Source: Euglena gracilis (lineage: Eukaryota). Taken from it: 64,000 bases of DNA. Below, piece by piece: positions 658 through 57,200 of this stretch. The stretch covers positions 38,425,703-38,489,702 of the forward strand of contig CP154954.1 in NCBI GenBank assembly GCA_039621445.1, in the 5' to 3' direction. The notes under the pieces were generated by a model. The model worked only from the letters and a program-made list of their open reading frames with translations, searched no databases and was not told the origin of the DNA. The position numbers and the translations under genes were made by a program. Position 1 is the first letter of the stretch, and each line of letters begins with the position of its first letter.

Positions 658-2350
658 TGAAAGATCCGGGCAGCATGCCCACAATGGCAATTGCTGGCAT
701 GCAGATGGCAGCTTCCGCAACACTGGCATTCTTCAACCTTCAGAACACAGAACTTACACACCCAGCAGACTTTGCATAATCTCCCCTTTGAATTTGCCAG
801 GCACTTGGGACACCCAATCCCAGGGGACTTTCCCAATTCTTCTTCCCCTTGGCGCGCAGCATAAGCCAAATGCACAAATACAGCAGAACACTCCTTCAAG
901 TCCAGTCCACAGCGCCACGCAAACAAGTCATGGGATTTGCCCTACCAGCAAAATGAATTAGGAACTTGTCTGCTGGAAATCCTTAATTCACCAATCTGTA
1001 ATGCCACATGTTGTAATGCCACAGGCTGGCATGCCAAAAGTTGCTGTGCAGCAAGGCCACTCACACTCCCCTCTCCGGGCGAGCTTTGCTGGGTCCAACT
1101 CCCAACAAAGCGAGTCAAAAAATTAAAAAGTGGCCTTGGTTGCAGTCACACCCATAAAATAAAAAAATAGAAATTTTAAATACGGTTCGAAGTGTTGCAC
1201 CTGTCTTGGGGCAAAGCTCCCTCAGGTGGACACTCCTACAGCAAACACACAGGCAGGCTGCAGAGGAAGGGCACCCACACCCCCTTGGAACCTCCTCCCC
1301 TGATGACCTCTTCTTTTTCAGGGGAAGACATCCCAAAGATGCCCCTTGGACCATCATGGGTGGAAACCTACCCTTCCACCCAAAATGGCCCAGAGAGTTG
1401 GGTGGGGTCCCAAGCAGGGGGTGAAATGGGCAAACTGGGGCATTTAAATTCTAGTTAATTTGGTCAACCGCGGCTCACCACAACCCACTGTCGAGCCATT
1501 TAATGAGATTTCCACCCAGCAAACACCCACCGCGGCATGGCCACATGCCCTCAGCGGCCATCTCCCACAGACATGTGTAATTTATTGGGTTTACTGCCCC
1601 AGAATTGGCCACAGACACAGCACGCGGCATGCCACAAACATCAGCCAAATACCTCGAATCTGACCTGTCCAGCTTGCCATTACTTCCCCTTCACTTTCTT
1701 CCTCCTCTCTCTTCTTCCCCTTGTTCTGGCTTTTCCTTCTGTCTGCACCCCCTTGTCGCACATCTCGATTGCATGTCTGAATTTGGAATCTCCATGTCCA
1801 AAATTGTCTTCAACACTTCTGTCCGAAACCTTCCCATGACCAAATCTGGCATTGCAATCTTCAGCATGACTGCCCAGATCATGCACTTTCTGAGCATCTT
1901 GGGCAGAGAACTTGTTTGTACAGGCTGGACTGACTTGTTTGTGAAAGATCCGGGCAGCATGCCCACAATGGCAATTGCTGGCATGCAGATGGCAGCTTCC
2001 GCAACACTGGCATTCTTCAACCTTCAGAACACAGAACTTGCACACCCAGCAGACTTTGCATAATCTCCCCTTTGAATTTGCCAGGCACTTGGGACACCCA
2101 ATCCCAGGGGGACTTTCCCAATTCTTCTTCCCCTTGGCGCGCAGCATAAGCCAAATGCACAAATACAGCAGAACACTCCTTCAAGTCCAGTCCACAGCGC
2201 CACGCAAACAAGTCATGGGATTTGCCCTACCAGCAAAATGAATTAGGAACTTCTCTGCTGGAAATCCTTAATTCACCAATCTGTAATGCCACATGTTGTA
2301 ATGCCACAGGCTGGCATGCCAAAAGTTGCTGTGCAGCAAGGCCACTCACA
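658..2350 (-). mobile_element. Mini LTR retroelement 1 (non-autonomous, TRIM-like, putatively self-priming)
   Basis: Near-identical direct repeats at 658-1065 and 1942-2350 read TGTGAGTGG...TTCA on the minus strand. The 4-bp TSD AGTG is at 654-657 and 2351-2354. A PPT (GGAGAGGGGAG, minus) is at 1066-1076. The 11-nt PBS at 1931-1941 is complementary to LTR positions 2205-2215. No gag/pol. Confidence 0.9.
1590..2162 (-). pseudogene. Small Cys-rich/Arg-rich ORF of LTR element 1, with in-frame stops
   Basis: ORF 1680..2162 (CPKC..CKVCWVCKFC..KGVQTEGKARTRGRRERRK) continues past stops as WQAGQVRFE..GQFWG, matching the ORF of LTR element 2. Confidence 0.55.
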
Positions 2351-2656
2351 AGTGTAGGCTGTGTCCTGTATTTCGCAGGAGTGTAAGGCACAAGCACTTT
2401 TCTTTGTTTGGCCGACGTTGGGTGGTCTTTTCCGGTCAGCGGAGAGGTAACCTGGGGGTTGTCAAATTCATATTGCTGAGGGAAGGTTGAAGGCCAGCAG
2501 AATCTGGCAGAACTGGCTGGCTGCGGGGCCACTGTTGCAGACCAAAAAGTGGATGTGCTGTCTGGCTGGGTGGCCACTGTTGCAGGCCAAAATGTGGAGG
2601 AACGTGGTTCGCCAGTTCGTCGGGGGCTTTTCAAGCTGAGAGCAAAAATGGTGGCA

Positions 2657-3392
2657 GGGGGGGCCTTTGAAGGCCCATGGCCTTTGCAGGCCACTGGGAC
2701 AAAATGCTGCAACAGGACCAAAAGGTGTCACAGGGGGGCCTTTGCAGGCCCAGGGTCTTTGCAGGCCACTGGAGCAAAATGGCGTTGGAAGGGGGCCTTT
2801 GCAGGCCCATGGCCTTTAGGCCACTGGGGCAAAATGGTGCAACAGATCGAAATGGTTTCACAGGGGGGCCTTTGCAGGCCCAGTGACTTTGCAGGACACT
2901 GGGGTGAAACGGTGTCACTGAGGGGTTGAGGTGGCAAAATGTTTTTCAATTTCAAGTCAAACTGCTGCAAAAAGTGTCATTGAGGGGTTGGGGTGGCAAA
3001 ATGTTTGTCAATGTCAAGTCAAAACTGCTGCAAAATGTGTCACAGCTTTTGGTGTAACATGTGCTGTGAAAACTGGGGGTTTGCCACTTCAATTGATCAA
3101 AGGTTTGGGATGCAATGCAGAACACAGAAAATAAGACCTTGGAGCTGAAAGTAGCACTTAATGGTTGGCAGATGGGGGGCCTTTGCAGGCCCAAAGGGGG
3201 GGCCTTTGGAAGCCCAAGATGAGGGGCCTTTGCAGGCCCAAATGGAGGTGCCTTTGAAGGCCCAAAGGCGGGGGGGGGCTTTTCAGGCCCACTGGCTGGA
3301 CGGGCCTTGTCAGGCCCTGTAGCAGATGGGGCCTTTTCAGGCCCAGGGCCTTTTCAGGCCAGTGGTGGTGTTGAGGGGGCGTTTTCAGGCCT
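2657..3392. repeat. Dispersed array of the short hairpin motif GGGCCT-TTGC-AGGCCC
   Basis: More than a dozen variants of gggcctttgcaggccc in two clusters (about 2657-2890 and 3175-3392), upstream of and overlapping the start of the 2A ORF. Confidence 0.85.
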
Positions 3393-3427
3393 TTTTTTTG
3401 CTAGAATTAAGAGGACCAGAAAGCGAG

Positions 3428-3478
3428 AACGGTGGTGGGGCGAACCGAATCCACCGACCAGTGGCACAGCCTACTGGA
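3428..3478. repeat. 51-bp double-hairpin motif, copy 1
   Basis: aacggtggtggggcgaaccgaatccaccgaccagtggcacagcctactgga is identical to 13882-13932. Stems are cggtgg/ccaccg and ccagtggc/gcctactgg. Confidence 0.9.
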
Positions 3479-3552
3479 GTTGAAGGTCCGCAGGCGGTTA
3501 TGATAATTAATTTAATTTTTTATTTTAATTGTAATTTAATATTTTTTTTTTA

Positions 3553-4419
<867 letters not shown>

Positions 4420-5082
4420 TGTCGTCTTTTTGATCTTTGTCGGTCATAACTAACGCGGGTGATTGGTGGTGCCTGAAATTACATGGTGCCAGGATGGGCC
4501 AGCATGGTGGGCCAAATCCTGTTTTGTCTTCTTGCGTGAAGATGAAGTGTTTTCAGACCAGGCTTTTGTGACTCATCGTTTCTGGGATACGATGAGAATC
4601 CTGTGCAATGCAAATGCAAGCTGTTTGTTGTGACAGAGCTCTTTGTGTCCCAAGCCTTGTTTTCCCGATGTTGTTGGTCATGGCTGGAAGAGGTCCTGGG
4701 TGGCCAGTGGACCGCAAAGTGCAAAGTACATAGAGCAAGGGTGATGGGCCGGCGATGGGGGGACTGGAGGAGCTGAGGAAGTATTCTCAGACCGGTTTTT
4801 TTGTGCGTAATATGTTGGATTTCTGATCTTTGTCGGTTCTGGCTGCTGTCCCAAATTGTGGTATGTTGCTTACATACTATACTGCTGTTCATCATTGTGA
4901 TGGGACGGTCTCAGCAGTAGCCTTTGATTTTCAGCAGCCTGCGGGAAACATTCTTTGTGTCCTCCTGCAGGTTGTGCTTTAGTCCAGATTATAAGGTTGA
5001 TGCGCCAGAACAGGACTTTGCATATCTTCAGATCCCAGGCATTGAGCCCACGACAGTTGTCGACACACTTCTCGGGCCAACA

Positions 5083-6369
5083 TGTGAGTGGTCCAGGTGC
5101 ATTTTTATGGTCACCATGTAATCACAGGCTGAAGCCTAATTCAAACAGGCAGATCGTGATTCACAGAAAAAATGATGGCGCTGTCTGTAGGTAGCTGTCA
5201 ACATACACTGTTCACTCTATTGTCTGGGATTACTTTCCTGAGAGTGTATTTGTTTGATTTTGTCTGCGGCGCAAGTTTATTTCAAGTTTGGTCATTGCTG
5301 CTGGAAGTGGGATTTTGGGAAAGAGATTTCAGTGAAAGGGATGTCAAGTAAAGGAAGGGGCTCCAGAAGTCAGGTCCGTGGTAAGGGGACCTCGGACATT
5401 CATGAACAGTGTATCAGGACAGTGTCCCAGTCCAGTTCGAACAGGGGACGCCATCGAGATGTACAGCCAGATTTGGTGAGATGTCGTTCAGTTGCCTGCC
5501 AGACAGATTCTCTGAGACTGGAATCCGTGGCTTGCCAGACATTTTGCAAAAGGCGGACAAGGGCCAGACGGCTACAGCGGAGATGGCTCGACCACCAAAA
5601 AAGATTTGAAGGTTTGAAGATTGATGGACAAAATTGGGGACCAGATTGGACATTGCAAAGTGATTGTGATTGGTAATTACAATTTGCTGCAACTTTGATT
5701 GTGGTCGGCTGCTGGGTGTTTGTCTTTGACTGTGGCCTGACGCCGCGGTACTGTGTGTACACCTGTGGATCGGCTGCGAAAGAATTTATCCGATGTGGCC
5801 TGATGTCGCAGAAGTGTGCTGCAATTTGGCTGCTGATCATTCATTCGCTGTAACATAGTCACTCAGATCGTGTCACCCCTGTGTGCTGTGTAGTGTGTCG
5901 GTGGCAGGTGTGAAGGCAATCACCCAGGACAGTACCATTGCAATTTCAAATGGACCACTTTTTTGCCTGGCTCCCCCAAAAATTTCGATGCACCTGGCCC
6001 AAATTGGAGTCAGGTCAGATTGCCGAGGGCAATCTCTTGAGCAGGGGGGTGGGAGTGGTCCAGGTGCATTTTTATGGTCACCATGAAATCACAGGCTGAA
6101 GCCTAATTCAAACAGGCAGATCCTAATTCACAGAAAAAATGATGGTGCTGTCTGTAGGTGGCTGTCAACATACACTGTTCACTCTGTTGTCTGGGATTAC
6201 TTTCCTGAGAGTGTATTTGTTTGATTTTGTCTGCGGCGCAAGTTTATTTCAAGTTTGGTCATTGCTGCTGGAAGTGGGATTTTGGGAAAGAGATTTCAGT
6301 GAAAGGGATGTCAAGTAAAGGAAGGGGCTCCAGAAGTCAGGTCCGTTGTAAGGGGACCTCGGACATTCA
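5083..6369 (+). mobile_element. Mini LTR retroelement 2 (non-autonomous, TRIM-like, putatively self-priming)
   Basis: 320-bp LTRs at 5083-5402 and 6050-6369 (TGTGAGTGG/TGGGAGTGG...TTCA). The 4-bp TSD AACA is at 5079-5082 and 6370-6373; the empty site gggccaacacaatgc is visible in the sister repeats. A purine tract gagcagggggg is at 6039-6049. The PBS tgaacagtgtat (5403-5414) is complementary to 5203-5214. Confidence 0.92.
5254..5676 (+). CDS. Small basic ORF of LTR element 2
   Basis: Open frame from the 5' LTR into the internal region. SVACQT occurs twice, followed by KRRTRARR, WLDHQKRFE and GQNWG, shared with the element 1 ORF. The start codon is uncertain. Confidence 0.5.
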   Translation: MILSAAQVYFKFGHCCWKWDFGKEISVKGMSSKGRGSRSQVRGKGTSDIHEQCIRTVSQSSSNRGRHRDVQPDLVRCRSVACQTDSLRLESVACQTFCKRRTRARRLQRRWLDHQKRFEGLKIDGQNWGPDWTLQSDCDW

Positions 6370-8007
6370 AACACAATGCTTAGTCCTACTCTGCTTCGCA
6401 GGATCTTCTTTCCCAGGGCTCCTTCTGCCCCAGGATGGCTCGGATGCAGGTCCCCAAAAAGATTCTGCCTTCATCTCCAATGCCACCACGTGGAGTTACG
6501 GGTTCAATATATATGCGTAATGTACAAAGCCGTGTCACAGGGTAAGAGGGCCGTTGTCGATCTTTTTTGTGTCTCATGTGCCATATTTCCGATCTTTGTG
6601 GTCATAACTAACGCGGGTGATTGGTGGTGCCTCAAATTTCATGGTGCCAGGATGGGCCAGCATGGTGCTCCAAATCCTGTTTTGTCTTCTTGCGTGAAGA
6701 TGAAGTGTTTTCAGACCAGGCTTTTGTGACTCATCGTTTCTGGGATACGATGAGAATCGTGTGCAATGCAAATGCAAGCTGTTTGTTGTGACAGATCTCT
6801 TTGTGTCCCAAGCCTTGTTTTCCGGATGTTGTTGGTCATGGCTGGAAGAGTCCTGGGTGGCCAGTGGACCGCAAAGTGCAAAGTACATAGAGCAAGGGTG
6901 ATGGGCCGGCGATGGGGGGACTGGAGGAGCTGAGGAAGTATTCTCAGACCGGTTTTTTGTGTGTCATATGCTGGATTTCCGATCTTTGTCGGTTCTGGCT
7001 GCTGTCCCAAATTGTGGTATGTTGCTTACATACTATACTGCTGTTCATCATTGTGATGGGACGGTCTCAGCAGTAGCCTTTGATTTTCAGCAGCCTGCGG
7101 GAAACATTCTTTGTGTCCTCCTGCAGGTTGTGCTTTAGTCCAGATTATAAGGTTGATGCGCCAGAACAGGACTTTGCATATCTTCAGATCCCAGGCATTG
7201 AGCCCACAACAGTTGTCGACCCACTTCTCGGGCCAACACAATGCTTAGTCCTTGCCAGCACTCTGCTTCGCAGGATCTTCTTTCCCAGGGCTCCTTCTGC
7301 CCCAGGATGGCTCGGATGCAGGTCCCCAAAAAGATTCTGTCTTCATCTCCAAGGCCACCACGTGGAGTTACGGGTTCAATATATGTGCGTAATGTACAAA
7401 GCCGTGTCACAGGGTAAGGGGGCCGTTGTCGATCTTTTTTGTGTCTCATGTGCCATATTTCCGATCTTTGTGGTCATAACTAACGCGGGTGATTGGTGGT
7501 GCCTCAGATTACATGGTGCTAGGATGGGCTAGCATGGTGGGCCAGATCCTGTTTTGTCTTGTTGCGTGAAGATGAAGTGTTTTCAGACCAGGCTTTTGTG
7601 ACTCATCGTTTCTGGGATACGATGAGAATCGTGTGCAATGCAAATGCAAGCTGTTTGTTGTGACAGAGCTCTTTGTGTCCCAAGCCTTGTTTTCCCGATG
7701 TTGTTGGTCATGGCTGGAAGAGGTCCTGGGTGGCCAGTGGACCGCAAAGTGCAAAGTACATAGAGCAAGGGTGATGGGCCGGCGATGGGGGGACTGGAGG
7801 AGCTGAGGAAGCATTCTCAGACCGGTTTTTTGTGCGTCATATGCTGGATTTCCGATCTTTGTCGGTGCTGGCTGCTGTCCCAAATTGTGGTATGTTGCTT
7901 ACATACTATACTGCTGTTCATCATTGTGATGGGACGGTCTCAGCATTAGCCTTTGATTTTCAGCAGCCTGCGGGAAACATTCTTTGTGTCCTCCTGCAGG
8001 TTGTGCT

Positions 8008-11000
8008 TTAGTCCAGATTATAAGGTTGATGCGCCAGAACAGGACTTTGCATATCTTCAGATCCCAGGCATTGAGCCCACGACAGTTGTCGACCCACTTC
8101 TCGGGCCAACACAATGCTTTGTCCTTGCCAGCACTCTGCTTCGCAGGATCTTCTGTCCCAGGGCTCCTTCTGACCCAGGATGGCTCGGATGCAGGTCCCC
8201 AAAAAGATTCTGCCTTCATCACCAATGCCACCAAAATAATCCAGGACCAGGGGCACAAGTGACCATCCCAGCCTGCTGCATACATCTTTGTACTTTGTCA
8301 CTTTTTCTTTCTCCTGTCTTTCATGCCAGCGTTCCCAACTTTGATCAGTCACTGGGTGGGACGGCGCCAGTGGATGCCGCACTGAGACATCTATTGCAGC
8401 CGGGCCGTTTGCATCGAACCTAGTGATGAAAACATCCCCAGGTCGTCTTCCATCTCCAGTGCCCTCTTCACGCCGAGCAGTATAGCCTGCCGCCTGTGCC
8501 AGCTGCAGGATGAAGTTTTGAATTCCTGCATGTCGCCGTGCCAAATTGTTTTTTTGTGCAACAAACCAGGTGATTCCCTTGATCATCCATCACTGTCTCA
8601 CATCGTGGACACTTTGCCTCCAAACCTTCGTGTGGAGCTACAACAGTCATCCCAGAGTCCATTGTAGAACTGCTCGGAATTCACCTGGGGGCATCAATGT
8701 CTTTTTTGCTGCACAAGGGTTTGCTGCCACCCACGCCAATGCATGAGGTTTCTGTTGGCTCAAAATACGCACCTTGTCAGCCCCGGTGGAATGCGTTACC
8801 AAGTCAGCTCCTCGTTTCTCAGAGAGCTTGTCGTTCCAGAATTTCTGGGAACTTTCCACTTTCCCCAGGTGAGGAATCCGATTGGAGTCCTGTAGTATCA
8901 AAGTTGTCAAATGACTCTCCCCCGTGATTTGTTCGACTGTGCGACCTGTCAGAACGAAGTCTGATGGTAATAGCTCAAGTTCTTTCGGGAACGAGACACT
9001 GTGTTCTGCTCTTTTGCAGAAATCCAAAATAGCAGCCCATCTGGCCACTGGCCTGGTCTTTATTGCATCGTGCAGTCCCAGGCCTCCCAGTCGAATGGGG
9101 ATGGTGGATTGCTCCCATCGAGCTTTTCAGTGAGCTGTCTTCGTGCAATATTGCTCAAACTGTCACGGACCAGGGCAGAGAAGAGCCGTACCATATCTTC
9201 AGAAGAGTTCAAGCGTTGTTCCTCGTAGAAGATCATTTACTTTGCAGCTGGCAATGCACTGGCGCAACAGGTGGAAACGAATGTGGCCGGAAGGAATGAA
9301 CTGCAGCAAGTAGCACAATTTTTCACAAGCTTTCAATCTGTCCTGCCAAATGGATCGCGCAAACGTGTCATCTCCCGGGTACGTCACAGGTATCCCCAGG
9401 GCTTTGATTCCAGATCCCTCCACAAAGGATGTTGCCGGTATTCGTTGCAACACACTGCTTCCCTGTGGCAATCTGCGAAAGGAATCATTGACGGCTGGGC
9501 CCCACAGCCGACATTTGTCCATGTTCAGACTGACCCCAATCGCAGGACCGTCTGCCAAAAGCATGCGCACCACACGATCCAGCTGTTCCATGGATCCAAT
9601 TAGATGGCAGTCGTCCAGGTACCAGCACTGCCATGGCACCATTTCTGCAATTTTGTTGACCAAAGGTTGCACCGCAATGCAGAAAAGAGCCGGGCCACAA
9701 GGGTCCCCTTGTTGAACTCCCGTTTTGGACCTCAGGCTTGTGTTTCCACAATACAAAGGGGAATGTGAACCATGGCATGATTCAGTCCAAGCTGTCATGT
9801 GTGGTACCTGCTGTCGCACTTGATGTAACATGGGTTCCCGTTTCAATTGATTGAAGGCGTTTGCAAAATCCAGCTGCAGAACAGCCCATTCTGTTTTCCC
9901 TGCCTTTTGCAGTCCTTGAACAATTTGTTGCAGTGCAATACTGGTGAGAGCACAAGCGTCAGAATGGCCTACACCGACTTGCCCAGGCAGCCCGTCAATC
10001 AGAGTGTTTCGTACAGTGGCTTCTTTTAACAGAACTTTGGCAAGCAACCGTCTTAAAACTTCTCCTGCCGCAATTGGCCTGGTTCCTTCGTGTTGCAAAT
10101 CGTTGTCCGTATGCAGCATCACATTACCGGCAGCATCTGTTTGTGGTTTCTTCTTTCTCAACGGCGTCAGTCGTGCTCCTGCCAAGATGGACCCCATTTC
10201 CAAAGGCAGTCCTTGTTGGATTGCCGAGAAGACAAAGGCGGAGATTTCTTCCAGTAAATCATCACCACAGCCCGCAGCCTGTGCGGAGATCAATGTTTTG
10301 AGATGGTCAGCCCGCTCGGTCCTCCTGCTGTTTCGTTTTTGAAGGACAGGATGGCCCGTCTCACGGCCTTTTTCATGTGGGCGTCTCCTTCTTGTCCCTC
10401 AGGGACTGGCAGGCGCACTCTTCCGTCGGGGGGCCCTTTCCCGGGCGGATCTTCTGATGGGTGAAGCAGACGTAAACGCTCACGAATTTTTGCATCATTT
10501 GCATCTTGGACTCCGTCTGACAACATTGCCTGACGCGCCTTTGCCGTTGCCCCTCTTTCCACCAGTTTCTGCATTCTGTTGAGAAAGGCTTCTTGTTGGA
10601 TTTCCTCCTCTTTACTTTTTGCTGATCGGGTTTTGACGCTGGATCCGAAATTCGCTTCCGACGGCCTGGACGACTCCCAGCATTCATGGACGTCTTTTTC
10701 CAGGTACGCCTTGGCTCTGGTACACAGCAGCCGCCCAATTCTGGCCCAGTGGGATCGTCCACCCTGACCAGTGCTTGCCAGGACTGCCTTTGGAAAACAC
10801 CACAAAGAGTGAAAGGCCTCCCAAGAGCCTTCTTGTCGTAATCGTCTGAACAAGAGGGTCAGGGTTCGTGCCACTTCCCCCAGCGCTCCTCTGGGGATCA
10901 ATGTCAACGTGGTCCTCGGTCATGTGCAATGTCATCCCATGCAGGGCGCAAACCTTTGGGACACGGTCCTTGTAAGGTGTGACACCCCCCCAAGTCCACT

Positions 11001-11959
11001 TCCATGCTGCCTTCCATAGGCCCCGGATTCTGCTCCACATCACCATGGGTCAGAACACCTTCTTCCCGCCCAGTTTTCCCATGGCCACGTGCTTTTCTTT
11101 TGTGAGCTTCAGATTCCTTCCTGGGGCCCGGGTTCAGGGGGACATCACCGCTGAAAGCCACACCTTCCCTGCCTGTGGCTAGGTGTTCTTCTGGCACCTG
11201 CAGCAATGTGTTTCCCGGGCCGCAAAGAATGTCTTGTAATTCTGCACAATGCTGTACGTGGGACAAGCACCACCCAGAATTTATTCTTTGCCTTGACCAC
11301 CCACACAGGGTGCACTGTACCCAGAAGGCTTCTCTTTCCTGAAAGAGAGGTGACGTCCCGTCTGGTCCTTTTGCAGGCTCCTCATCCGCCCGTATTTTGA
11401 ACATGTCTTGTACTTGTTGTTCCACCAAGACATGCAGGAGATCACATTCACCACACGGGCCCGCCGTTGGTCCAGGCAGGGGGTTGATGTCACCAGAAAA
11501 AAGCAGCCCCCAAGAGCCCTTGGCCGGGATGTCACGATTTCGTCCCATCTGTTGCCATTGGTCCACGACTTTGGTCAATTTACGTGCCGCCCGCTCGTGG
11601 ACCAGCGTGCCCCCCTGCTGCCGTCGCTCCTGCCGCTGATGCAGGAATTTTTTCTTCCAGCTGCTGAAAGAGGTTTCCTGCAGTGGAGCATTTTCCGGGG
11701 AATTGGGCGGACCAGACCTCGGCTCCCGGCATTTTTCGTCAAACATGACGCCCGTTGGGTTTAACCACTGGCCTTCCACTTTCCAAATCTCTGTGTCAAA
11801 GACAGAGAAAATTTTGTATGGGCCTCCTGGTGCTGGCCGTCTTTTTTCTTGCACCGCCGGTTTTTTCTCCCTTGTGGGGGTACCTTTTTCCATCACTGGG
11901 GTTTGGGATTCCCTTTGTCCTTGCTCAGGCCCGAATTCCAGGGCAAGGGGGGTAATCAA
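8008..11959 (-). pseudogene. CRE polyprotein: 2A region, reverse transcriptase, CCHC knuckle and restriction-like endonuclease (several frameshifts)
   Basis: RT motifs ARLTPLRK, RPIAAGEVLRRL, QVGVG, LDFANAFN, GVQQGDPCGP, YLDD, LNMDKC and ALGIP. Then CPRC..DDQGNHLVCC, and RLE motifs RRH..E..RPGD..IDVSV..K..KY..PLVLDYFGG. Confidence 0.93.
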
Positions 11960-12139
11960 CTCATGGCCGAGTTTTTCTCCAACTGCAGTTGGGGGGGGGA
12001 TATCTTCCCCTCTCCTGGACTTTTGCTGCAGAAAATCTTGGGGGGGTCTTCAGCACGCACTGAGCCACACAATGGGAATGTTTCTTCTCCCTGTGTGTGG
12101 TCCGCTTCTTCATTTTTTGCTACTGTTCTTTCCTTTCTT

Positions 12140-13413
12140 TCAGCAAGTCCAAATCACTCCTTCATGGTCTGAAGGAAAGATAGGAGGCTGTTGTTGAGCT
12201 GTCTGATGGGAGGCTCCAGTCCTGTCTCCTCCCTCTCCCGAATGGCTTTGGCTCCTCCTCCTTCTTGGTAAGGAGGGGGGGGGTGCTGACCCCAGGCCCT
12301 CCAGAGGCTGGCTGGGCAGAGGACACTGCTGCTGAGGTGTTGACAGTTCCTGGGGGGATGGCATTGTGCCCCACCGAATGGCCCATCAACAGCTGGTACT
12401 TCCACCAGGGTAGGTCTGCAGACATTGCCCCAGAGGGGTCCACATAGTAAACAGGCTGGGGAGTCATATACATCTGGTTCTGGCCACACATTGTCTGGCC
12501 CTGGCCAAGCAAAACTGCAGCTTGTCCTGAAAGGCCTGCTGTGGCTGCAGCTGCTGGTGTATACATCACAGACTGGGGATGGGGTACTTGATGACCTGTG
12601 GCAGATGCTGCAGCAGAGGAGTCCAAACTGGAAGAAGGCTGAGGCAGTTGATAAAATGTTGTCCATGGAATAACCCCAGATGGCAGATGTACAGTGCCTG
12701 ACCTTCTCTGTGCAGGGTACTCTCTCTGCTGCCCATACTCCTGCTGCTGCAGGGCTCTTCTCTGTGCTGGGTAGTCTCTCTCCAGCTGCTCAAACTCGTG
12801 CTGTTGCTGCAGGGGTCTTCTCTGTGCTGGGTAGTCTCCCAACTGCTACTCATACTCCTGCTGCTGCTGCAGGGGTCTTCTCTGTGCAGAAGAATCTCTG
12901 ACCTGTCTCTCTTGGTCAGGCCACCTCCAGTCTGGAGGGAACTCAGCTGCACTCCTCCTGTCTGGAGGGTTTCCACCACGTTAAACATTGAATCTCTTTC
13001 TGTCAGGGCTTCTGCTGCGACTTCTGGTCTGTCTTCCCCAGTACTCAGCTCTTCTTTTCCTGTCAGCTTCCTTCTGTTCCCAACGCAGCTGGCGAGGTCG
13101 TTCTGGGCATATAAAATATATTTGCATATAAAATCCTTTCGGAGCTCCCGGATGTGCACTTTCCGATGGAGAGGACTTGGAGAATCTCCAACTCCACCGG
13201 GGAATTTTTTCATGCTGACAATGAGAAAAAATGATTATTCATGCTCATAAAAGCAACCATTTTGTTTACAAAAAAATTCGAAAAACGCCAAAAAATTCAC
13301 ATCACATACGAAGAACCCCACCTGCGTTTCAGATAGTTCTCATACTCATCTGCTTCAAGGAAACCTTCTCCTTCATCCTCCTCTCTGCTGTCTCGGCTCC
13401 AACGCCTTCTCAT
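12140..13413 (-). pseudogene. CRE N-terminal (ORF1-like) region with an in-frame intron at 13215-13321 and Q-rich repeats
   Basis: Exon 13413-13322 (MRRRWSRDSREEDEGEGFLEADEYENYLKR) splices in frame to ORF 12566..13213. About four YPAQRR-LQQQ repeats lie at ~12705-12895. Frameshifted. Confidence 0.6.
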
Positions 13414-16327: not shown

Positions 16328-19300
16328 TCAGGGGGGAAATGCGTTTCGCATTTTTTTTTGCATTTTTGCGCATTTTTTCAAATTTTTTCGCATTTTTTTT
16401 TCGCATTTTTTTCCTTTTTTTCCGCACGTTTTTTTGCTTTTTGGCACAGTTTTTTGTGATTTTCCAAAATTTTCGCATTTTTTTGACCATTTTTGACCAT
16501 TTTTTGCAAAAATTTGAAAATTTTGACTTTTTTGAAACGTACATTTTCCTCATTATTACATAATTTCTTCAAATTTGGTGCCATTTTTGCACGTTTTTGG
16601 GTAATTTTTGCATTTTCGTGATTTTTGCGCATTTTTTCTCAGATTTTGCACATTTTTGCGCATTTTTCTCCAAAAATGCGCATTTTTTGTGCATTCTTTT
16701 GCGCATTTTTGCGCATTTTTTTCCGAGGCCGGGCGAGCGCATTTGCTCCCCTGCACACATTCCGAAGCACACATGCACACACCCACACCACATCATTTTT
16801 AATGAAAGATTTTTGCACCATATTTTCCAATGATCTCCCCAAATTCTTCTTTTCAATTTGCGAAACTGGTGGAAGATGGACAGCGCCAGAAAAAGATACA
16901 AAAACACCCCCTTTTCCATACTTTTGAGCATATTGCCCTTTTTGATCATTTTTCGATGTTTTGGTGTTTTATGAAAGATTTTCTATACAAAAATCGACCG
17001 ACACTAACAGATTCAGCAGGGGCGCCGGGCGCGAGCGAGCGAAGCGAGCCGCCCGGCGCCCCTGCTGAATCTGTTAGTGTCGGTCGATTTTTCTAAAACC
17101 TATTTTGTCTGGGCCCGACGCCTGTCTTGATATTCATTCGACCGAACCGCCTGGACGGAAATATGGTCAAAAAAGTGGTTTTTGGCCCATTAACGGGCGC
17201 CTGAATGGAAATCGACCGACACTAACGGGCGCCTGAATGGAAATCGACCGACACTAACGGGCGCCTGAATGGAAATCGACCAACACTAACGGACGCCTGA
17301 ATGGAAATCGACTGACATAAACGGTTTCCGATGTCTTGGAAATCGACCGACCTTTTGTGTCCTTTTTTTGAATGCCTTTTGTTCCGTTTCGGGACATTTT
17401 AGGTGTCAGCCTGAAATCCGTTAATGTCGACCCAACCTTTTGTTCCCTTTTTCGGAATGCAGCTTTTCTTCCATTTTGAAACAAACAATCTCTACATCAA
17501 GAACTGTGTCTTAAACGCAGACTCTGCATTTTTTCGGAATGCATTTTTTCTTCCATTTTGCCAAGAACAATCTCTACTACAAAAAAGGGGTGGCGGACGC
17601 CGGTTCTGTCCAAAACCCGGCGTTCCAAACGCCGGTTCCGTCCGAAGGACGGAACCGGCGTTTGGAACGCCGGGTTTTGGACAGAACCGGCGTCCGCCAC
17701 CCCTTGTTTAAAGCGGCGTTTTAGAGACGCCGGGTTCAGGACAGAACCGGCGTCCCCACCCTTCGGTCAAAGGACACTCCCAGGACCAATCTCCGACCAC
17801 TTATCTGCAATGTCACGCCACCTTGCATTTCACCAAATTCCGGCGATCGCGAGGGTATTTCTGGCTGTGTCGATCGCCTGGGTACAAACTCACCCCTCGA
17901 TCGAAAGCTCTTTTCATCAGACGACTGGCGATCACCACCAAATTCAGCGACGCCGCCTGGAGCTCTTACTTTCTGTCACTGGGAAATCCTAATTTCACAA
18001 CTCTGGTGCCCCCCAGAACCCCTCAGGTGGTCGCTTCGAAGAGAAGAAACGTTTCTGTAAGGTTTATTCAGCATCTTAAACCAAAAATCACTGAAAATTA
18101 CCACAAATTTCGACTAAGATTCTGGCCGATCCGACGATCGCGAGCGTATCTCTGGCTGCGTGCAACGTTAGGGTACCAAGTTACCCCTCGATCGAAAGCT
18201 CTTTTCAACAGACGACCAGCGGTGCTCATCAGACCTTTCCACGCCGCACGGTACTCTTTATCAAAATCTGGGCCAATTTCACGAAATTTGGACATCCACC
18301 CCACTGGTCCCCAAATGGCAAAAATCATTGTCCTACATGGTTAAAACAGTCATACCAGGAGCTTTGGGCCACTTTTGGGCACTTTTGGTGACATTTTTAG
18401 GAATGAAAATCGGACGCCGGGTTTTGGACAAAACCGGCGTTCCTAACGCCGGGTTTTACACAAAAATCGTCCATGTCACCCGGACACACCGTGTGTCCGG
18501 GTTATGGGCGCCGAAGGCGCCCATAACCCGGGTACACGGTGTGTCCGGGTTACAATGGACGATTTTTGTCTATATCCGTTGACTAAGAGGCCCAAGACAC
18601 ACACTGTGTCTCGTGGAACTTAGCCACGCAATGTCTACCCCGTATTTTTTTGCGATTTTTTGTCAAATTTTCAGTTCACGATGACACACACTGTGTCTCG
18701 TGGACTGCCAGTCCACGAGACACAGTGTGTGTCCTCGTGAACTGAAAAAAATCAAGAATTCCCACTGGTCCGACCAACAAGGGACAAGTTTTACCACATT
18801 CCGCTACCTGTCCTTGCAGTTTTTTCTTTCGGAAAATGAAGAAGACCGCAAACAGTGTGGACCGCATGCTCCCCCGACCCCCGAAACCAGATGAATTTGT
18901 TGCTACACTGGAAAAGTATTTGGTCGATTTGCAGAAGGGCCCTGCTGTTGACCCAATACACGGTACGTTGTTGGCCAACGTGTTGGAAGAGAAGCCAAAA
19001 GGGACCGCAATTGCTGAGCGTGTAGCTGTTACACGCCTGTTGGAGTTCCAGCAGGTGTGTAAACATCTGAACGCTCAGTATGAGGACCTGGATGGCTTTT
19101 TTTCCGCATGGGCTGGTTGGGTCATTGACCCCAGATATTTGTTTGATGAGGCTACCCTCATCAATCAAGCTGAGCAACAACGCCGGGGCACAGTGTGGCA
19201 CCACATTCAGTTTCGAGACATACCTGTACCATCTCAGCTGTTACAGCTCACGGTTGTCCGGTGACCATCTTTCCACTGCCCTGCTGCATTGCATTAGATG

Positions 19301-22300
19301 TAGAACACCTCGCATTTCTGGCAAACACCTTTTATTTTTCAGTCCACGAGACACAGTGTGTGTCCCAGTCCACGGGGACACACACTGTGTCTCGTGGACT
19401 CAGTCCACGAGACACAGTGTGTGTCTTGGGCCTCAGTCCACGGATATTAGGACAGAACCGGCGTCCGAAAACCCGTGGGGGGGGACGCCGGTTCTGTCCT
19501 GAACCCGGCGTCTCAAACGCCGGTTTTATCTCAAGAACTGTGCCTAAAACGCAGACTCTGCATTTTTTTAGAAACACAGATTTTGACCAAAGCCATGTTG
19601 CCAGGAACACAGCCTTGCAATAGAATAGAATTGCAATACAGGCGTCGAGCCCAGAAAATAGGTTTAACGTGGCCAAATTACTCCTCACCCGAAAGCTTTT
19701 CTTTCAGATGACCAGTGATAACAACTGGTTCAGGGCAAATTTGCCGAATGCTTTTTCTGAAGTCCCAGAAAATGATAATCTTCAGCTCCGTCCTTCCGTC
19801 TGTTCCATCAAAGTTCAGCCAGCTGTGATCACCTGACCACAAAATTTGGTTTTTTTCTGGTCCAAAACGCCTCCACAACCCCATAGGACCAAAAATGTCT
19901 TCAAAAAAGGGAGATCCAAAATGTCCAAAAAGTCACCAAAAATTCCCAATCTGACCAGCAACAGATTTCAATGGAATGGAAATCGACCGACATAAACGGG
20001 CGCCTGAATGGAAATCGACTGACATAAACGGGCGCCTGAATGGAAATCGACTGACATAAACGGGCGCCTGAATGGAAATCGACTGACACAAACAATTTCA
20101 GGCTGAAATCCGTTAATGTCAGTAGAATTTCAAGACAGGCGTCGGGCCCAGAAAATAGGTTTTAAGATTTTTCAAAAATGAGCATTTTTGGATTAATTTT
20201 CTACACACAAATTGTGGCTGAGCCCAGATTTCAGCCTGAAAACGTGTTCAGCCAGGGGGCCCCCGAAGGGGGCCCCCTGACGTTTTCAGGCTGAAATCTG
20301 GGCTCAGCCACAATTTGTTTGAAAACGTGCCTAACCACAGATGCCTTAATTGAAAACGTGTCATTGCCACAGATGCCCTCATTGAAAACGTGTCACCCCC
20401 CCCCTTTTTTTTTTTTTTTTCCCACTATGGCGAAACGCACGGCTAACTTTGTGAATGGTCTTTTGCCACCTCCCCCTAGGACGGAACTGTTCCTGGCTGC
20501 TCTCGCGGTATACCAGCAAGATGCCAAGAAGCCGAAGGTTGACCCCCTTCTGGCACCTTGCTGGCACAGGGCAACGTAAAGAAAAGGTCCGGCTCCGTGG
20601 GAGCAGAGGCTGCTGTTGCCAACTGTTTGGAGTTCGCCAAACTGTGTCAACATCGGAAGCATCTTATCCTGAGCTGCATGCTTTCTTTGTTGCCTGGATG
20701 GGATAGGAGCTGGAACCCAGCCTGTTGTTCGATGAGGCGAGCGTCATTTAACAATGTGTGGCTCAACGTGAGCAGCAGTCGGGAACTTTGTTCGTTTCAG
20801 GGAATTGTTCGGCAACCTCTTTTCTTCTTTGCCATTCCCAAAAATCCAAATTGGAGCTGAACAAAGTTGTGTGTGACGCCTGTGGTTTGGCATATCATTT
20901 TCATTGCCAAGATTTGCGGTGGCCACCAAAGTTTGGCTCTTTTTTTGTGTAAAGCGTGTCGTGTTCCGTGAGGTCCGCCACTCCGTGTCGTTGTGCTCCA
21001 AGGCAACCTAGCTTTCTGTTGTGTTTAGAGTGCCCTCGATCCGCCTCACTCGTTGAGGACCACCCGGCCTCGCAACCGCCCGCCGATTTTTCATGACAGC
21101 GTTTTTTGCTTTTTACTCAGGGTTGCCACAGATGCCTCATTGAAAACGTGCCTGACCACAGATGCCTTAATTGAAAACGTGTCATTGCCACAGATGCCCT
21201 CATTGAAAACGTGCCTAACCACAGATGCCTTAATTGAAAATGTGTCATTGCCACAGATGCCCTCATTGAAAACGTGTTCATGACCACGAATTTCAGGGCA
21301 GGCATTTGGCGGGCTGAACATGTTTTTAAGGCACGTTTTTAAAGAAATCAGGGATTTTTGAACAATTTTGCCCGATTTTCCAGCCGTTTGCCCGTCCACA
21401 AAACCAGCCCCCCCCCCAAATTTCGAGGTAGGGGGTGGGGGGGGGGGTCCCTCATCCATCCTCCCCGTCGGGCCAGGACTTTGGGAGATAAATAATACCC
21501 AGGGGTGTTCACCTCCTCCTCTGTCCCTCTACCCCCGGGGCACGAGGTATCAAAAAAAAAAAGTGGCAAGTTTTGGTTCATATCAGGTGGCCGCACCGTC
21601 CCCGGGCGGAATATTGGCCATGCTGGTTCTGGACGGGCCGACCTCTGGAGGTCGACAGAAATGGCCACTGACTGTGCTGCATTATCCCTCGGGCCGACCT
21701 AGTCAGCCCGACCTGTTGCTGCGGCCGCGCGAGGGGGGGGGGGCTCGGACCTGGCCAATCCACGCACCAATCCCCCATTGTATCTGCCGGCTGTAACTTC
21801 ACCTTCCAAAGCTGGTGTCTCCTCCGAGTCCCCCCCCCCACGTCCCAGACACACCCTATGGGTGGGGCGGGAGGGTCCAACCACACCCCACCATGCCGCA
21901 AAGGGGCAAAGCAACTCCCTGGAGATTTCACATCCAAGGACCTGATTGCCTCTTCATTCAACTGTTCCATTTCTTTCCTTTTCCCCCTCACAGAGAACAC
22001 CCAGATTATGCTGATGTTGCCATCAAGTCTGCCAAATTTGAGGCCATGGTGTCTCGAAAACATGCACCCAAGATGTCACAAAGCATCAATTTCTTCACCC
22101 CAATACCTCCTGGAACCCACAACCAGACAATGGCAAGGGAAAAGTCAAGGCTCAGCAAAAAAAATAATCTTCGCTCGGCCAGTGTCCTGGGACCACAAGG
22201 GGGGGGGGGGAATGACGGGGGGTTGCTTGGTTTTTTTTGCCATTTGAGAGAAAGTGAACTGGAGTGGGAGGAACATGGGGGGAGTGGGCAATAATTGAGG

Positions 22301-25300
22301 ACAAAGTGTCAAAATTCACTAGTAAGAAACACCATGTTTGCTTGGGGTTTTCACCAATGCTTTGATCCATTTGGTGTGGCAGAATCCAACGACGTTCCAA
22401 CCATCATCCATCCACCGCCATCACTGCCCTTTGCCATCTTGCAAGCAACAATCAAGAAAGTCACCAGAGGGTGGGCCATCATCGACAACAAGAGCACAAA
22501 TGGGGTCATGGTAAATCGCCAACCTATCCAGGCAGATGTGCCGATGCCCATCAAGTGTGTTCTGTCTTGTCAGGTTACCATGCTCCTCCTCATGAGACCC
22601 CCCCTGGCCAGCCAAAAGCAGGCCCTTTGACTGAAGCCAACCCCTCCCCCATTGATACCCTGGAATTCACCTGTTTGTGGAGCACCCACCCACCCACCCC
22701 TTGGGGTGCTCCCGGGGGGGGGAGGGGGGAGGCCCGGGGTTCATTCGGGAGCGTGATTTGGCCCTCCTTATTTTGCACACACAAGGGGATTTTGTTATTT
22801 TTGGCGGGGGTCCGGGGCATACAATTTCTTACCGACCCTGGGGGGGTCACTCCACTTTTTTAAAAACCAGTCAGTCACCCATTTTCAAAAAACCAGCCAG
22901 TCACTGCCCCCGGGGGGGGGGTCGGCCACTCAGAAAAACGGCCACTTTCCAGTTACTTTAGGCCATTTCAGGCCAAAAAAAAAATTTCCGGCGCCTTCGA
23001 CACCGGGGTCACTCAAGCCACTTTTGCCCGCTCCTGGCCGCCCCCCCCCCCGGGGGGGAGGGGGTCCGGGCCCAAAACCAGTCAGTCACTCTGAAGAAAC
23101 TAGTCACCCACCCCCCGGGGGGGGTCGGTCAGTGCTTTAGCAATTGCCTGGTCCGGGGGGGGGGGGGGGGGGGTGGCAGCCCCCCCCCCCCCCCCCGGAG
23201 GAGGCCGTAGGTCGACTAAGTTCGCATATTGGGGTTCATACGGGGGCGCGATTTGGCCCTCCTTATTTTTCACACACAAGGGGATTTTGTTATTTTGGGC
23301 GGGGGGGGGGGGTCCGGTGGGTGGCGCCCCCCCCCCCCCCCCCGGAGGCCGACTAAGTTCACATATCGGGGTTCATTTTTTGCAAATGGACCCCCGAACG
23401 GGGGGTTTCTGAAGGCATTTGGGTGGGTTTCGAGTCATTTTCCTCCATATTTGAATGAAAATTTTTGGAGGGGGGGGGCTTAAAATTTTTAGAGGGGGTA
23501 GACTGAAAATTGGTGGTCGGAGCGACTAGTCGCTCCGACCACCAATGGTCGCTAGGCCATCACCAACAGTCGCTAGCGACCACCAAAAAATCCATCACCA
23601 ATTTCCCGCAATGAGCCCATCACGGGCAAATACAGGGAGATGTTTAACCCCCCAAAATAACACCTTGATAATTGTGAACGGCCGGCAGCAAAAATTACTC
23701 GCCACTGGCGTCATGGTCCGAAGGCCAGGCCCCAGTCCTATTGAATGTCCAGGCCCTGGTCCCCCCTGGAGCCAAAAAAGCTTCAGTGGCAGAGAGCCAT
23801 GGGCAGACAGGGGGAAGCGCACCTGGGGGGGTTGCAGTCCTATGGCATACCCCTCTGGCGTCTTTGGCACCGCGGGGGTCAGTGGAATTTTGAAAGAAAA
23901 ATGGGGTTTGGTGGGCGGCCATTACACAAAAATCGTCCATGTCACCCGGACACACCGTGTGTCCGGGTTATGGGCGCCAAAGGCGCCCATAACCCGGGTA
24001 CACGGTGTGTCCGGGTTACAATGGACGATTTTTGTCTATATCCGTTGACTAAGAGGCCCAAGACACACACTGTGTCTCGTGGAACTTAGCCACGCAATGT
24101 CTACCCCGTATTTTTTTGCGATTTTTTGTCAAATTTTCAGTTCACGAGGACACACACTGCGCAGTGCCCTAATTCCCCCCCCAAATTAATGTGCAGTGCC
24201 CTGTTTGTGCGCACCCGCCAAAGGTCCGAAACTAGCTCCCTAAAAAGTGCGCACCCCCCCAAAGGAGAAACTGTCACATCTCAGGTCGGAAAGCACACAC
24301 AATTCTTCCATCCTCCAATCCCAAATTTGACACATTCCACCAGATGTGTCTCGTGGACTGGCAGTCCTCGAGACACAGTGTGTGTCCTCGTGAACTGAAA
24401 AAATCAAGAATTCCCACTGGTCCGACCAACAAGTGCCCCCCAATAACTTGGCCTTTCGGCAACTTTTGGCTTAGAGCATAAAGGTTTCTCGTGGACAAGT
24501 TTTACCACATTCCACTACCTGTCCTTGCAGTTTTTTCTTTCGGAAAATGAAGAAGACCGCAAACAGTGTGGACCGCATGCTCCCCCGACCCCCGAAACCA
24601 GATGAATATGTTGCTACACTGGAAAAGTATTTGGTCGATTTGCAGAAGGGCCCTGCTGTTGACCCAATACACGGTACGTTGTTGGCCAACGTGTTGGAAG
24701 AGAAGCCAAAAGGGACCGCAAAGGCTGAGCGTGTAGCTGTTACACGCCTGTTGGAGTTCCAGCAGGTGTGTAAACATCTGAACGCTCAGTATGAGGACCT
24801 GGATGGCTTTTTTCCCGCATGGGCTGGTTGGGTCATTGACCCCAGATATTTGTTTGATGAGGCTACCCTCATCAATCAAGCTGAGCAACAACGCCGGGCA
24901 CAGTGTGGCACCACATTCAACTTCGAGACATACCTGCCTTCTACCGTTTACAGCTCACGGTTGTCCGGTGACCATCTTTCCACTGCCCTGCTGCATTGCA
25001 TTAGATGTAGAACACCTCGCATTTCTGGCAAACACCTTTTATTTTTCAGTCCACGAGACACAGTGTGTGTCCCAGTCCACGGGGACACACACTGTGTCTC
25101 GTGGACTGCCAGTCCACGAGACACAGTGTGCGTCTTGGGCCTCAGTCCACGGATATTATCCCCAAAGGCTTTGACATCCTGCCGAAATACAACCAGATCT
25201 TACTTTGGTTTTGTGCCCATCATTTTCCCCTCCTACAGAGATGGCGATGTCATCACATTTGGAACCGACCAGTCAGACCTTGTGTACACTTTTGAGGTGT

Positions 25301-54298: not shown

Positions 54299-57200
54299 AA
54301 AAAAATAATATATAGCAGTGGCAAAAAACCAATGGGCAAAAGGTAAAAAATGAAAATGCCCTTTGGGGGCATTCTCACAGTTTTAGGGGGGGGTCTATCT
54401 TTTGGATTTCCCCTGAAAATCCCGAGGGGGGACTTATTTTGGGGGTCTGATTTTTTTCGGATATTTGCTGAAAATAAGCAGGGGGATCTTTTGGGGGGGG
54501 GTCATACTATTTGGTGTGTGTGTGGGGGGTATTTACCACTGCTCAACTGCAACTGACGTACAACAAAAACATTCCTATCTTGGGAAACTTTGTTCATCTT
54601 TTTTGCACAATTCAAATTTGGGTGGTGTTGCGGGGATTTGTTGGGATTTGTCCGGATTTGTTGCTGGAGGCGCTTGGATATGGGGGTATGAACTGCATAT
54701 GTTGCTCTTTCTGTTTCCCTCTGTTTCCTTTTTGAAATTAATTGCAACTTTGGACCCACCTGGCCGGTACCACCCTTTTTTAAAAAAAAAAGTCTTCTAC
54801 AGATATCCACACAAGAAAACAAACACATAGGATAATTGTTAGAGGGGTTCCACTTCTGACTCACAAAGTGACTGCAGCGCACCTGACGAGACAAATTGAA
54901 ATCGCAGATCTTCGCGACGATTTGGTTGTTTTTGACGTTCAGAAGAATGTTGTCCGGCTTGCCGCTTGGAGCTCCCGTTTGCCACCTCATCATGCCAAAC
55001 CACCTCAGCATGCCCATCCAACTGGGTGCAAATACTGCTGGTCTCCATCCCCGTGTAAACAGGAGCAAATGATATGCACCAAATGATGTGAAACCAAATG
55101 ACAGGACACCAAATGATACGACACCAAATGATGTGGCACCCAATGGCACCCAATACACTATCCCTCCTGGTTCCCTGCAAATATGGGAGGGAGGCCAGGG
55201 GGCCCCATGGCAACACCATCGCCCCTGTCCCAGGCAAGGCACCTGGGTAACAACACCTCCGTGTCAAGATAATAAGGTTGGAACGTAGCCATGTCTTCGA
55301 CAAGGGGCCAACCCCCCGCCTGGCCACCGGTTTGGGGCATCCAACGCGAGGTCCCGATGGATCACTTCCGCGGAGTGGATGTAGTTCAGGCCGCATGCGA
55401 CCTGGTAGAAGATGCTTTGGTACGAGTCCTCGTCCAGGGGGCCCACGCTGGAGGGGAGGGGGTGAGGGTGGGACCGGATCCGTGCCCGGAAGAACATGCA
55501 GACAAAAAAAGACACCTGGTGGAATGCTGAATCGAGATACCAACGTTTCCCATTGCAATTCGCCGGGAGAAAAACAATCCGACCACTTGATGCCTCTGAC
55601 TCGAGCATTTGATGCATAAAAATTTTGAAAATTTTGAGAAAAATTATTTGTGGACACCAACTTCAACTGCCAAAAAAAAAGAAGAAAGAAATGCCCCATC
55701 ATACAGACAGCTGTCATACAGACAGCCACGGCACACTCCGGGGGCATACACAAGCAGGAGCTCCTTCAAGTCCATGTCGAGGAACTCCGTCAGGATGTAC
55801 ACGTCCAGGAACTGCGGCGACCGGGGCGGCAGCAGTCCCCGCGTGCGGACGAGGTTGGGCAGGGAGGCGGCGGTCCGACCCTGCTCTCACTGCACCCCTG
55901 GCAGTGGGACCCAGGTCCTGTTTTTCTTCAGGCACCTTTGAAAACCACGCCTTGAAATGCCTTTAATTTTTTAAAGAAATCCGTTTGGCAGAAGTCTTCG
56001 GACCGAGCAAAAATGAAATCTCAAAAAAAAACGAGCCAACTCGGGGAAGAACAGTGATTTCCACATCAACGGTGATGTGGCATCGTTGGAACACTATCCA
56101 TCCACCCAAAACTCGGAAAAATGGGTTTTCAACATACTTTTCGATGTTCGGTGCCCGGAAAAAATATATATTTAACTTCGAAACCCCTTTCAAAACCTTT
56201 TTTTATTATTAAAAAAACAGCTTTTTGAAAGATTTTATTCCCGAAATTTTCGGAAAATTTTCTGGCTTATGAATAGACTGGTGAAAACCCCCCGCAACGC
56301 CTACAACCTGCCCTCCCCCCCCCAACGCCTACACCTGCGCTTTCCACCCCTCCTCTGGCTTTTCCATTGCCTTGTGGTGGGGTTTTGGAGGGCCCCACTC
56401 CAGTGGGGGGGTCTGTAGGTGGACTTTTTGAAAGTGGGCAGAAGCTAGGCCTTCCTGGCTCCTAGTGCCTTGGACATGGGAATGCCTGCTGGGCACTGTT
56501 GACCAGGGAACCACCCCCATGGTACCCGGTGCTGTGGACCGATGCCTTGGGGGGGGGATAAAAGAGAACTTGTTAGCCCGCTACCCCCTGCAAAGGCATT
56601 TGGGTTCACAAAGCTTTGGGGGGGGGGGCAGTGCAAAGTTGCTTGGGGTTAGTTTGCCGGCCCTGGCAGCACTGACCGGGCGGTCCACGCCTGTCACAGT
56701 GGGGCCCGGGATGAACGGCTGGCAGCGGCAGCGGCGCTGTCCGGACGAGGTGACAGTGGACCGCGGCCTCGCCGGGGTGGTCGAAGAACTGCAGCAGCTT
56801 GATCTCCCGCAGCACGCGCTTCCCGTCCTCCGGGTGTTGGAAGAGCTGGTCGCACTTCTTGATGGCGATGGTCTCCCCCGAGCTGTGGTCGTACGCGGAG
56901 AGCACCGCGGCGTACGACCCTGTATGGCGGACAACGCGCAGGGAGCGCAAGGCGGCATGGCATGGTGCGTTAAGAAGTGATGCGCATGTCGTGTGTGTGG
57001 GGTGTTCGTGTGCAAACATCTGGAATTCCACACACCAGCAGGCAGGGCGTTGCTTAACTACCGCTCCCCCCGGGGGGGTCCAGCTCAATGGCTGGAAAAT
57101 TTGGGTGGGTGGGTGGGTGGTTGCCCCCGGGGGGGGGGGGTTGCGCGTGAGTGGGTTTTTGGAAAAAGTGGGTGGGTGTCCCGGGGGGTAACTACGTTAA

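Follow-up and report, generated by a model that had tools for sequence, protein, structure and literature searches.

A primer binding site (PBS) that matches the 3' end of a tRNA starts with TGG, the complement of the tRNA 3' CCA. In Tf1 and Tf2 of Schizosaccharomyces pombe, Tj1 of S. japonicus and the Tf1/sushi Ty3/gypsy chromoviruses, the PBS beside the 5' long terminal repeat (LTR) complements the upstream LTR of the element itself, and not a tRNA. The Tf1 RNA is reported to pair by its first 11 bases with the PBS, and RNase H to cut between bases 11 and 12 (PMC7175516), while Tj1 is described with the same self-priming layout (PMC4600332). According to a study that surveyed plant elements, self-priming has been described or predicted in Tf1/sushi elements of fungi and vertebrates, in moss and club-moss elements of the Tcn1 clade and in the TAR lineage of Ty1/copia elements, and 12% of the plant elements in this survey are predicted to use it (PMC6317226). 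Here we analyze a stretch of 64,000 nucleotides from Euglena gracilis (contig CP154954.1, positions 38,425,703 to 38,489,702; hereafter the window), which holds two short LTR elements, A and B, whose PBS likewise complements their own upstream LTR.

A and B are genuine non-autonomous LTR retroelements. Their target site duplications (TSDs) measure 4 bp, against 5 bp in Tf1. They also differ from the Tf1/sushi elements in having no gag or pol, in a transcript start that is a prediction, and in their host, a euglenid, which lies outside fungi and vertebrates. The duplex is 11-12 nt long in A and B and 11 nt long in Tf1 (PMC7175516). Regarding the Tcn1 clade and the TAR lineage (Houba, Osr-1), self-priming has been deduced from sequence alone, as in A and B, but these elements are autonomous and have been placed by the phylogeny of their reverse transcriptase (RT), RNase H and integrase, whereas A and B lack pol. 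TRIMs (terminal-repeat retrotransposons in miniature) and the small members of the large retrotransposon derivatives (LARDs), which are presumably mobilised in trans, resemble A and B in their terminal direct repeats, the position of the PBS, the polypurine tract (PPT), the TSD and the absence of coding capacity. TRIMs are defined as elements of <1000 bp with terminal repeats of 100-250 bp and a tRNA-complementary PBS (PMC6934838). A and B are not TRIMs, since they measure 1693 and 1287 bp, their LTRs have 409 and 320 nt, and their PBS is self-complementary.

In the genome of E. gracilis, LTR elements are reported to make up 21.8-32.8% and unclassified repeats 32.7% (PMC11252322); the RT repertoire of this organism has been described as diverse (bioRxiv 10.64898/2026.05.21.726589). 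Our literature searches on Euglena with self-priming, and on E. gracilis with Ty3 and PBS, found no description of such elements. An earlier note on this DNA had put forward A and B as a self-priming, non-autonomous family that it did not know to be described. Their non-autonomous anatomy, the pairing and the absence of a TGG-type PBS stand, but the novelty was overstated: the mechanism itself is not new, being already predicted in fungi, vertebrates, mosses and club-mosses, and TAR copia elements (PMC6317226).

The sequence after each 5' LTR is complementary to that LTR

In element A, LTR nt 136-146 (2215..2205) and the first 11 nt past the 5' LTR (1941..1931) are exact reverse complements of each other, with 11 of 11 positions paired. 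The same relation holds in element B between LTR nt 121-132 (5203-5214) and the first 12 nt past the 5' LTR (5403-5414), with 12 of 12 positions paired. The perfect complementarity that the earlier note had reported is thus exact, and its offset from the LTR end is 0 in both elements, as the pairing begins with the first post-LTR base. This is the geometry required for the 3' end of a primer to begin copying at the last base of U5. Besides, the helices are exactly 11 bp (A) and 12 bp (B) long, with the flanking pair mismatched on either side.

The post-LTR stretches, CAAACAAGTCAG in A and TGAACAGTGTAT in B, have no initial TGG and so differ from a tRNA-type PBS. Neither ARAGORN nor Rfam detected any tRNA-like sequence in the window, LTRs included (0 tRNAs).

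For a single match of this kind, the analytic expectation is 9.5e-5 for A and 1.8e-5 for B. Since the window is rich in inverted repeats, we also measured its own background. An 11-mer with its reverse complement in the preceding 409 nt is found at 551 of 62,481 positions (0.88%); for a 12-mer and the 320 nt before it, the count is 419 of 62,569 (0.67%). With these values, the joint chance for the matches of A and B is ~6e-5. The complementarity clearly exceeds chance.

Two LTR families share their termini and the pairing

Judged from their alignment, A and B are members of two different LTR families. Their LTRs align only at the ends, over the initial 9 nt and a few final bases, and a short-word comparison of the whole elements returned only scattered 8-12-mers, near the number given by chance. 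All 11-12 paired positions of primer and PBS differ between A and B, which is the strongest argument for what appears to be selection on the pairing itself. Because the LTRs cannot be aligned beyond their termini, it is the pairing that is conserved and not the sequence, and here the analysis agrees with the earlier note.

The consensus of family B starts with TGTGAGTGG and ends in ...GGACTTTCA (places 6052 and 5398), which brings both termini near those of A. Shared termini suggest related integrases and, with them, related autonomous partners.

Some smaller features recur in both elements. The PBS core is partly repeated downstream, in A as CAAACAAGT at 1907-1915 (-), 24 nt past the start of the first copy, and in B as ACAGTGT at 5420-5426 (+), 14 nt further on. 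The word CCTAATTCA is common to both U3s, at LTR nt 104-112 in A and LTR nt 53-61 in B, and is found again at LTR nt 72-80 of B, in the 3' LTR only. A/T-rich stretches lie ~20-37 nt upstream of the predicted starts in both LTRs. The word and the A/T-rich stretches are possible promoter pieces.

Family B in public sequence runs

Four public runs were placed on positions 4900-6500, all of them in the form of contigs, which are unable to show RNA starts. In the DNA run X3, 844 contigs were placed on the region of B, and most bins have summed depths of 1e4-1e5. At exactly 5083 (before) and 5402 (behind), this run shows loose ends whose letters are unlike each other (agreement 0.46-0.48), which fits many insertion sites and confirms the borders of the LTR. 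Family B is mobile, of very high copy number and flanked by many different sequences. The empty units of the tandem array in which B lies (see below) are represented by contigs joining 5080/5082 to 6388/6390.

The 40 variant places that are listed all lie outside 5203-5214, 5403-5414 and 6170-6181, with 34 further places beyond the list. Contig 1 of run X15 (5345-5460) differs from the window only at 5350 and 5398, leaving the PBS unchanged, and contig 26 of run X5 (5202-5722) has 10 differences, the nine listed being all outside the pairing sites. We considered the beginning of this contig at 5202 as a transcript start and rejected it, as the unitigs of this contig and of contigs 28 and 29 overlap by 30 nt. 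Uncovered parts of the 5' LTR in X15 and X18 have no meaning, because LTR contigs go to one of the two copies. In contig 29 of X5 (single, depth 3.2), position 6169 is directly preceded by 17 adapter-like letters; this is LTR position 120, one base upstream of where the self-primer of B is predicted. These letters could be due to chance or to copies of one short fragment, and we have not used them as evidence.

We found no other copies of A or B in the window, where exact TGTGAGTGG occurs at the known LTRs only (3 exact among 43 with at most one mismatch), and the self-comparison of the window gave no further TG..CA LTR pairs. Related copies were not found in three public contig collections either (metagenome, genome and viral). 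The metagenome scan with the LTR end of B returned 16 loci with a match limited to 18-22 nt around the pattern, and the genome contig scan with the LTR/PBS junction returned 12 Pseudomonas loci with a match limited to the 21-22 nt word. Both sets were rejected as chance, and the viral contig scan gave 0 matches.

A predicted self-priming mechanism and its alternatives

Self-primed reverse transcription is the best reading of A and B, and we consider it probable. Within the 5' LTR, transcription would start at about nt 136 in A and about nt 121 in B, a predicted start that would mark the U3/R border. The first 11-12 nt of the RNA would then fold back onto the complementary stretch directly past U5. 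The RNase H of a partner RT would presumably cut past the paired stretch, and the freed 3' end would be extended through U5 and R to give minus-strand strong-stop DNA. The PPT adjoining the 3' LTR would prime the plus strand, and integration would produce the 4-bp duplication. In such a cycle A and B, being non-autonomous, would ride on self-priming autonomous elements, the presumed partners. Because A and B share the LTR termini recognised by integrase, related autonomous elements, so far unseen, probably mobilise them in trans. A more general proposal is that an entire group of euglenid LTR elements, those with TGTGAGTGG...TTTCA termini, may use self-priming as its standard mode, and that their very high-copy, protein-less derivatives keep only the termini, the primer/PBS pair and the PPT. 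We put this forward tentatively, as a plausible extension that falls somewhat short of being probable.

We folded the predicted R-U5-PBS RNA of both elements. The minimum free energy (MFE) folds close the 5' end onto the PBS in A and in B, and the centroid fold does so for B, a closure that follows largely from the choice of the fragment ends. Small hairpins end 16 nt (A) and 5 nt (B) before the LTR end in the MFE folds.

One could argue that the pairing between LTR and PBS is a long-range RNA stem, involved in leader masking, packaging, dimerisation or help with strand transfer, and that another primer is used. The RNA start is a prediction, so the LTR site could sit inside R or U5, and the partial second PBS core downstream in A and B hints at a more elaborate RNA pairing. 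Still, an offset of 0 in both families is needed by the 3' end of a primer and not by a structural stem, and the post-LTR sequence contains no alternative PBS starting with TGG, which makes the stem an unlikely explanation. A second alternative is a primer supplied by the host, either a fragment of a tRNA or some other small RNA, in the style of the half-tRNA priming of some Ty1/copia lineages and with the LTR match being secondary. Each of the two families, which have the same termini, would then require a small RNA of its own, and each RNA would have been copied by coincidence into the respective LTR, at depths as similar as nt 121 and 136. Half-tRNA PBSs are known in several plant copia lineages (PMC6317226); the tRNA search, which covered the window, found nothing tRNA-like, even in the LTRs. 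We regard this second alternative as slightly less likely than the stem. Finally, both matches could be the product of chance in a sequence rich in inverted repeats. The background of the window is indeed high, but two independent matches at offset 0 have the joint probability given above, both lie at a similar LTR depth, and the PBS of family B is unchanged in the X15 contig, so that chance is a highly improbable explanation.

Several points weigh against self-priming. The RNA 5' end at the LTR site is a prediction, the run data being contigs. Whole-fragment folds are not more stable than those of shuffled sequences (z -1.44 and +0.57), and the small U5-IR-like hairpins beside the PBS are not significant in the same comparison (z +0.05 and -1.20). 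As the window is unusually rich in inverted repeats, each site has a raised chance background of a little less than 1%. An internal fragment of a tRNA could conceivably act as the primer, the tRNA search having covered the window, and minority copies of family B may carry changes at the pairing sites among the 34 variant places beyond the 40 listed. Besides, the window contains no autonomous element with these termini and no pol of Ty3/gypsy or Ty1/copia type.

Anatomy and insertion of the two elements

The features of both elements are collected in Table 1. LTRs, 4-bp TSDs and PPTs all hold for the two elements that the earlier note had placed at 658-2350 (-) and 5083-6369 (+). A and B have direct LTRs of the TG...CA type (TGTGAG...TTCA), a structural feature of LTR retrotransposons. 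As for the termini that had been claimed, the TG..CA ends are confirmed, but the 3' LTR of B begins with TGGGAGTGG and the LTR of this copy of B ends in ATTCA. The first is a private change, the family consensus having T at place 6052 in the public-run contigs, and at the second (place 5398) the family consensus reads TTTCA. Six of the eight differences between the LTRs of B lie within the first 120 nt, the inferred U3 (binomial ~0.04, by hand calculation). Neither the list of open reading frames (ORFs) nor Pfam, run on 143 ORFs of at least 125 aa, showed gag or pol domains in A or B; the only domains found were RVT_1 elsewhere in the window and the exons of a kinase. Pfam on further ORFs gave nothing diagnostic of the host.

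Table 1. Features of elements A and B and of the empty target sites, in positions of the window
Feature	Position	Strand	Remarks
Element A, whole LTR element	658-2350	-	1693 bp, non-autonomous
A 5' LTR	2350..1942	-	409 nt, TGTGAGTGG...GGATCTTTCA
A 3' LTR	1065..658	-	408 nt, 99.3% identity to 1942-2350
A TSD AGTG	654-657 (downstream in element orientation), 2351-2354 (upstream)	.	same 4 bases
A PPT GGAGAGGGGAG	1076..1066	-	11 purines adjoining the 3' LTR, direct reading
A putative PBS CAAACAAGTCA	1941..1931	-	first 11 nt past the 5' LTR
A predicted self-primer, LTR nt 136-146	2215..2205	-	exact 11-nt complement of the PBS; inferred U3/R boundary
A primer-like site, 3' LTR copy	920..930	-	exact word match
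A internal region	1077..1930	-	gag/pol not recognised (ORF list, Pfam)
Element B, whole LTR element	5083-6369	+	1287 bp, non-autonomous
B 5' LTR	5083-5402	+	320 nt, 97.5% identity to 6050-6369
B 3' LTR	6050-6369	+	320 nt, 8 differences from the 5' LTR
B TSD AACA	5079-5082, 6370-6373	.	repeated 4 bases
B PPT GAGCAGGGGGG	6039-6049	+	adjoins the 3' LTR, direct reading
B putative PBS TGAACAGTGTAT	5403-5414	+	first 12 nt past the 5' LTR
B predicted self-primer, LTR nt 121-132	5203-5214	+	exact 12-nt complement of the PBS; inferred U3/R boundary
B primer-like site, 3' LTR copy	6170-6181	+	word match
B internal region, non-coding	5415-6038	+	ORF list, Pfam
Empty paralogous target site 1, single AACA	7235-7238	.	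4432-5082 matches 6591-7238 at 97.5%
Empty paralogous target site 2, single AACA	8108-8111	.	4432-5082 matches 7463-8111 at 97.5%

Element B lies inside one unit of a tandem triplication (unit of ~870 bp, 4432-8233), on the 3' side of an R2-like retroelement. B is a true insertion with a 4-bp duplication, because the other two units of the array run through a single AACA. This empty-site evidence covers B, and A is represented by its TSD only.

Other features of the window

The R2-like retroelement corresponds to a long broken frame of a non-LTR retrotransposon at 8008-13234 (-), with the RT at 9199-10398. This RT is the only one in the window (RVT_1, E 1e-15), and its best matches among solved proteins are those of R2 (E 2e-7). 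A search for homologues gave 13 matches, all with an identity of at most 56%, and a cluster search led to eukaryotic RT clusters only. Downstream of the RT there is a stretch, PGDVF...AAIDVSV, which we take to resemble an R2-type restriction-like endonuclease. We considered this RT (9199-10398, -) as the autonomous partner of A and B and rejected it, as it is R2-like and has no LTRs.

Between the two LTR elements, the region 2500-3400 contains minisatellite arrays on a GGGGCCTTTGCAGGCCC-like motif, with 11 copies of a 19-nt core, and 3540-4440 is a compound microsatellite of ~900 bp made of (GA)n, (TA)n and (TC)n in this order, which forms a giant imperfect palindrome with arms of up to 166 nt and 77-91% complementarity. 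Two direct repeats of ~1 kb (18456-19449 and 23922-25158), with 97-99% identity, lie ~5.5 kb apart. The second one carries an additional block of ~330 bp, and the pair has neither TG..CA ends nor an evident TSD; these repeats could be another type of element or a segmental duplication. Finally, a host protein-kinase gene in small exons is found at 54505-57196 (-), covering positions 9-58, 93-124 and 125-152 of the Pkinase profile, and the introns between the exons measure at least several hundred bases.

Implications

The two families provide a case of natural covariation, in which each paired position differs and the pairing is retained. If the prediction on the start site is true, self-priming would extend to a new host lineage and to very abundant non-autonomous elements. 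LTR detection pipelines could overlook such elements, or fail to classify them, where a tRNA-type PBS is required. And if self-priming is the standard mode of this group of LTR elements, it would reach beyond fungi, vertebrates and land plants, and derivatives like A and B, with primer and PBS covarying between families, would define the minimal cis requirements for self-primed retrotransposition.

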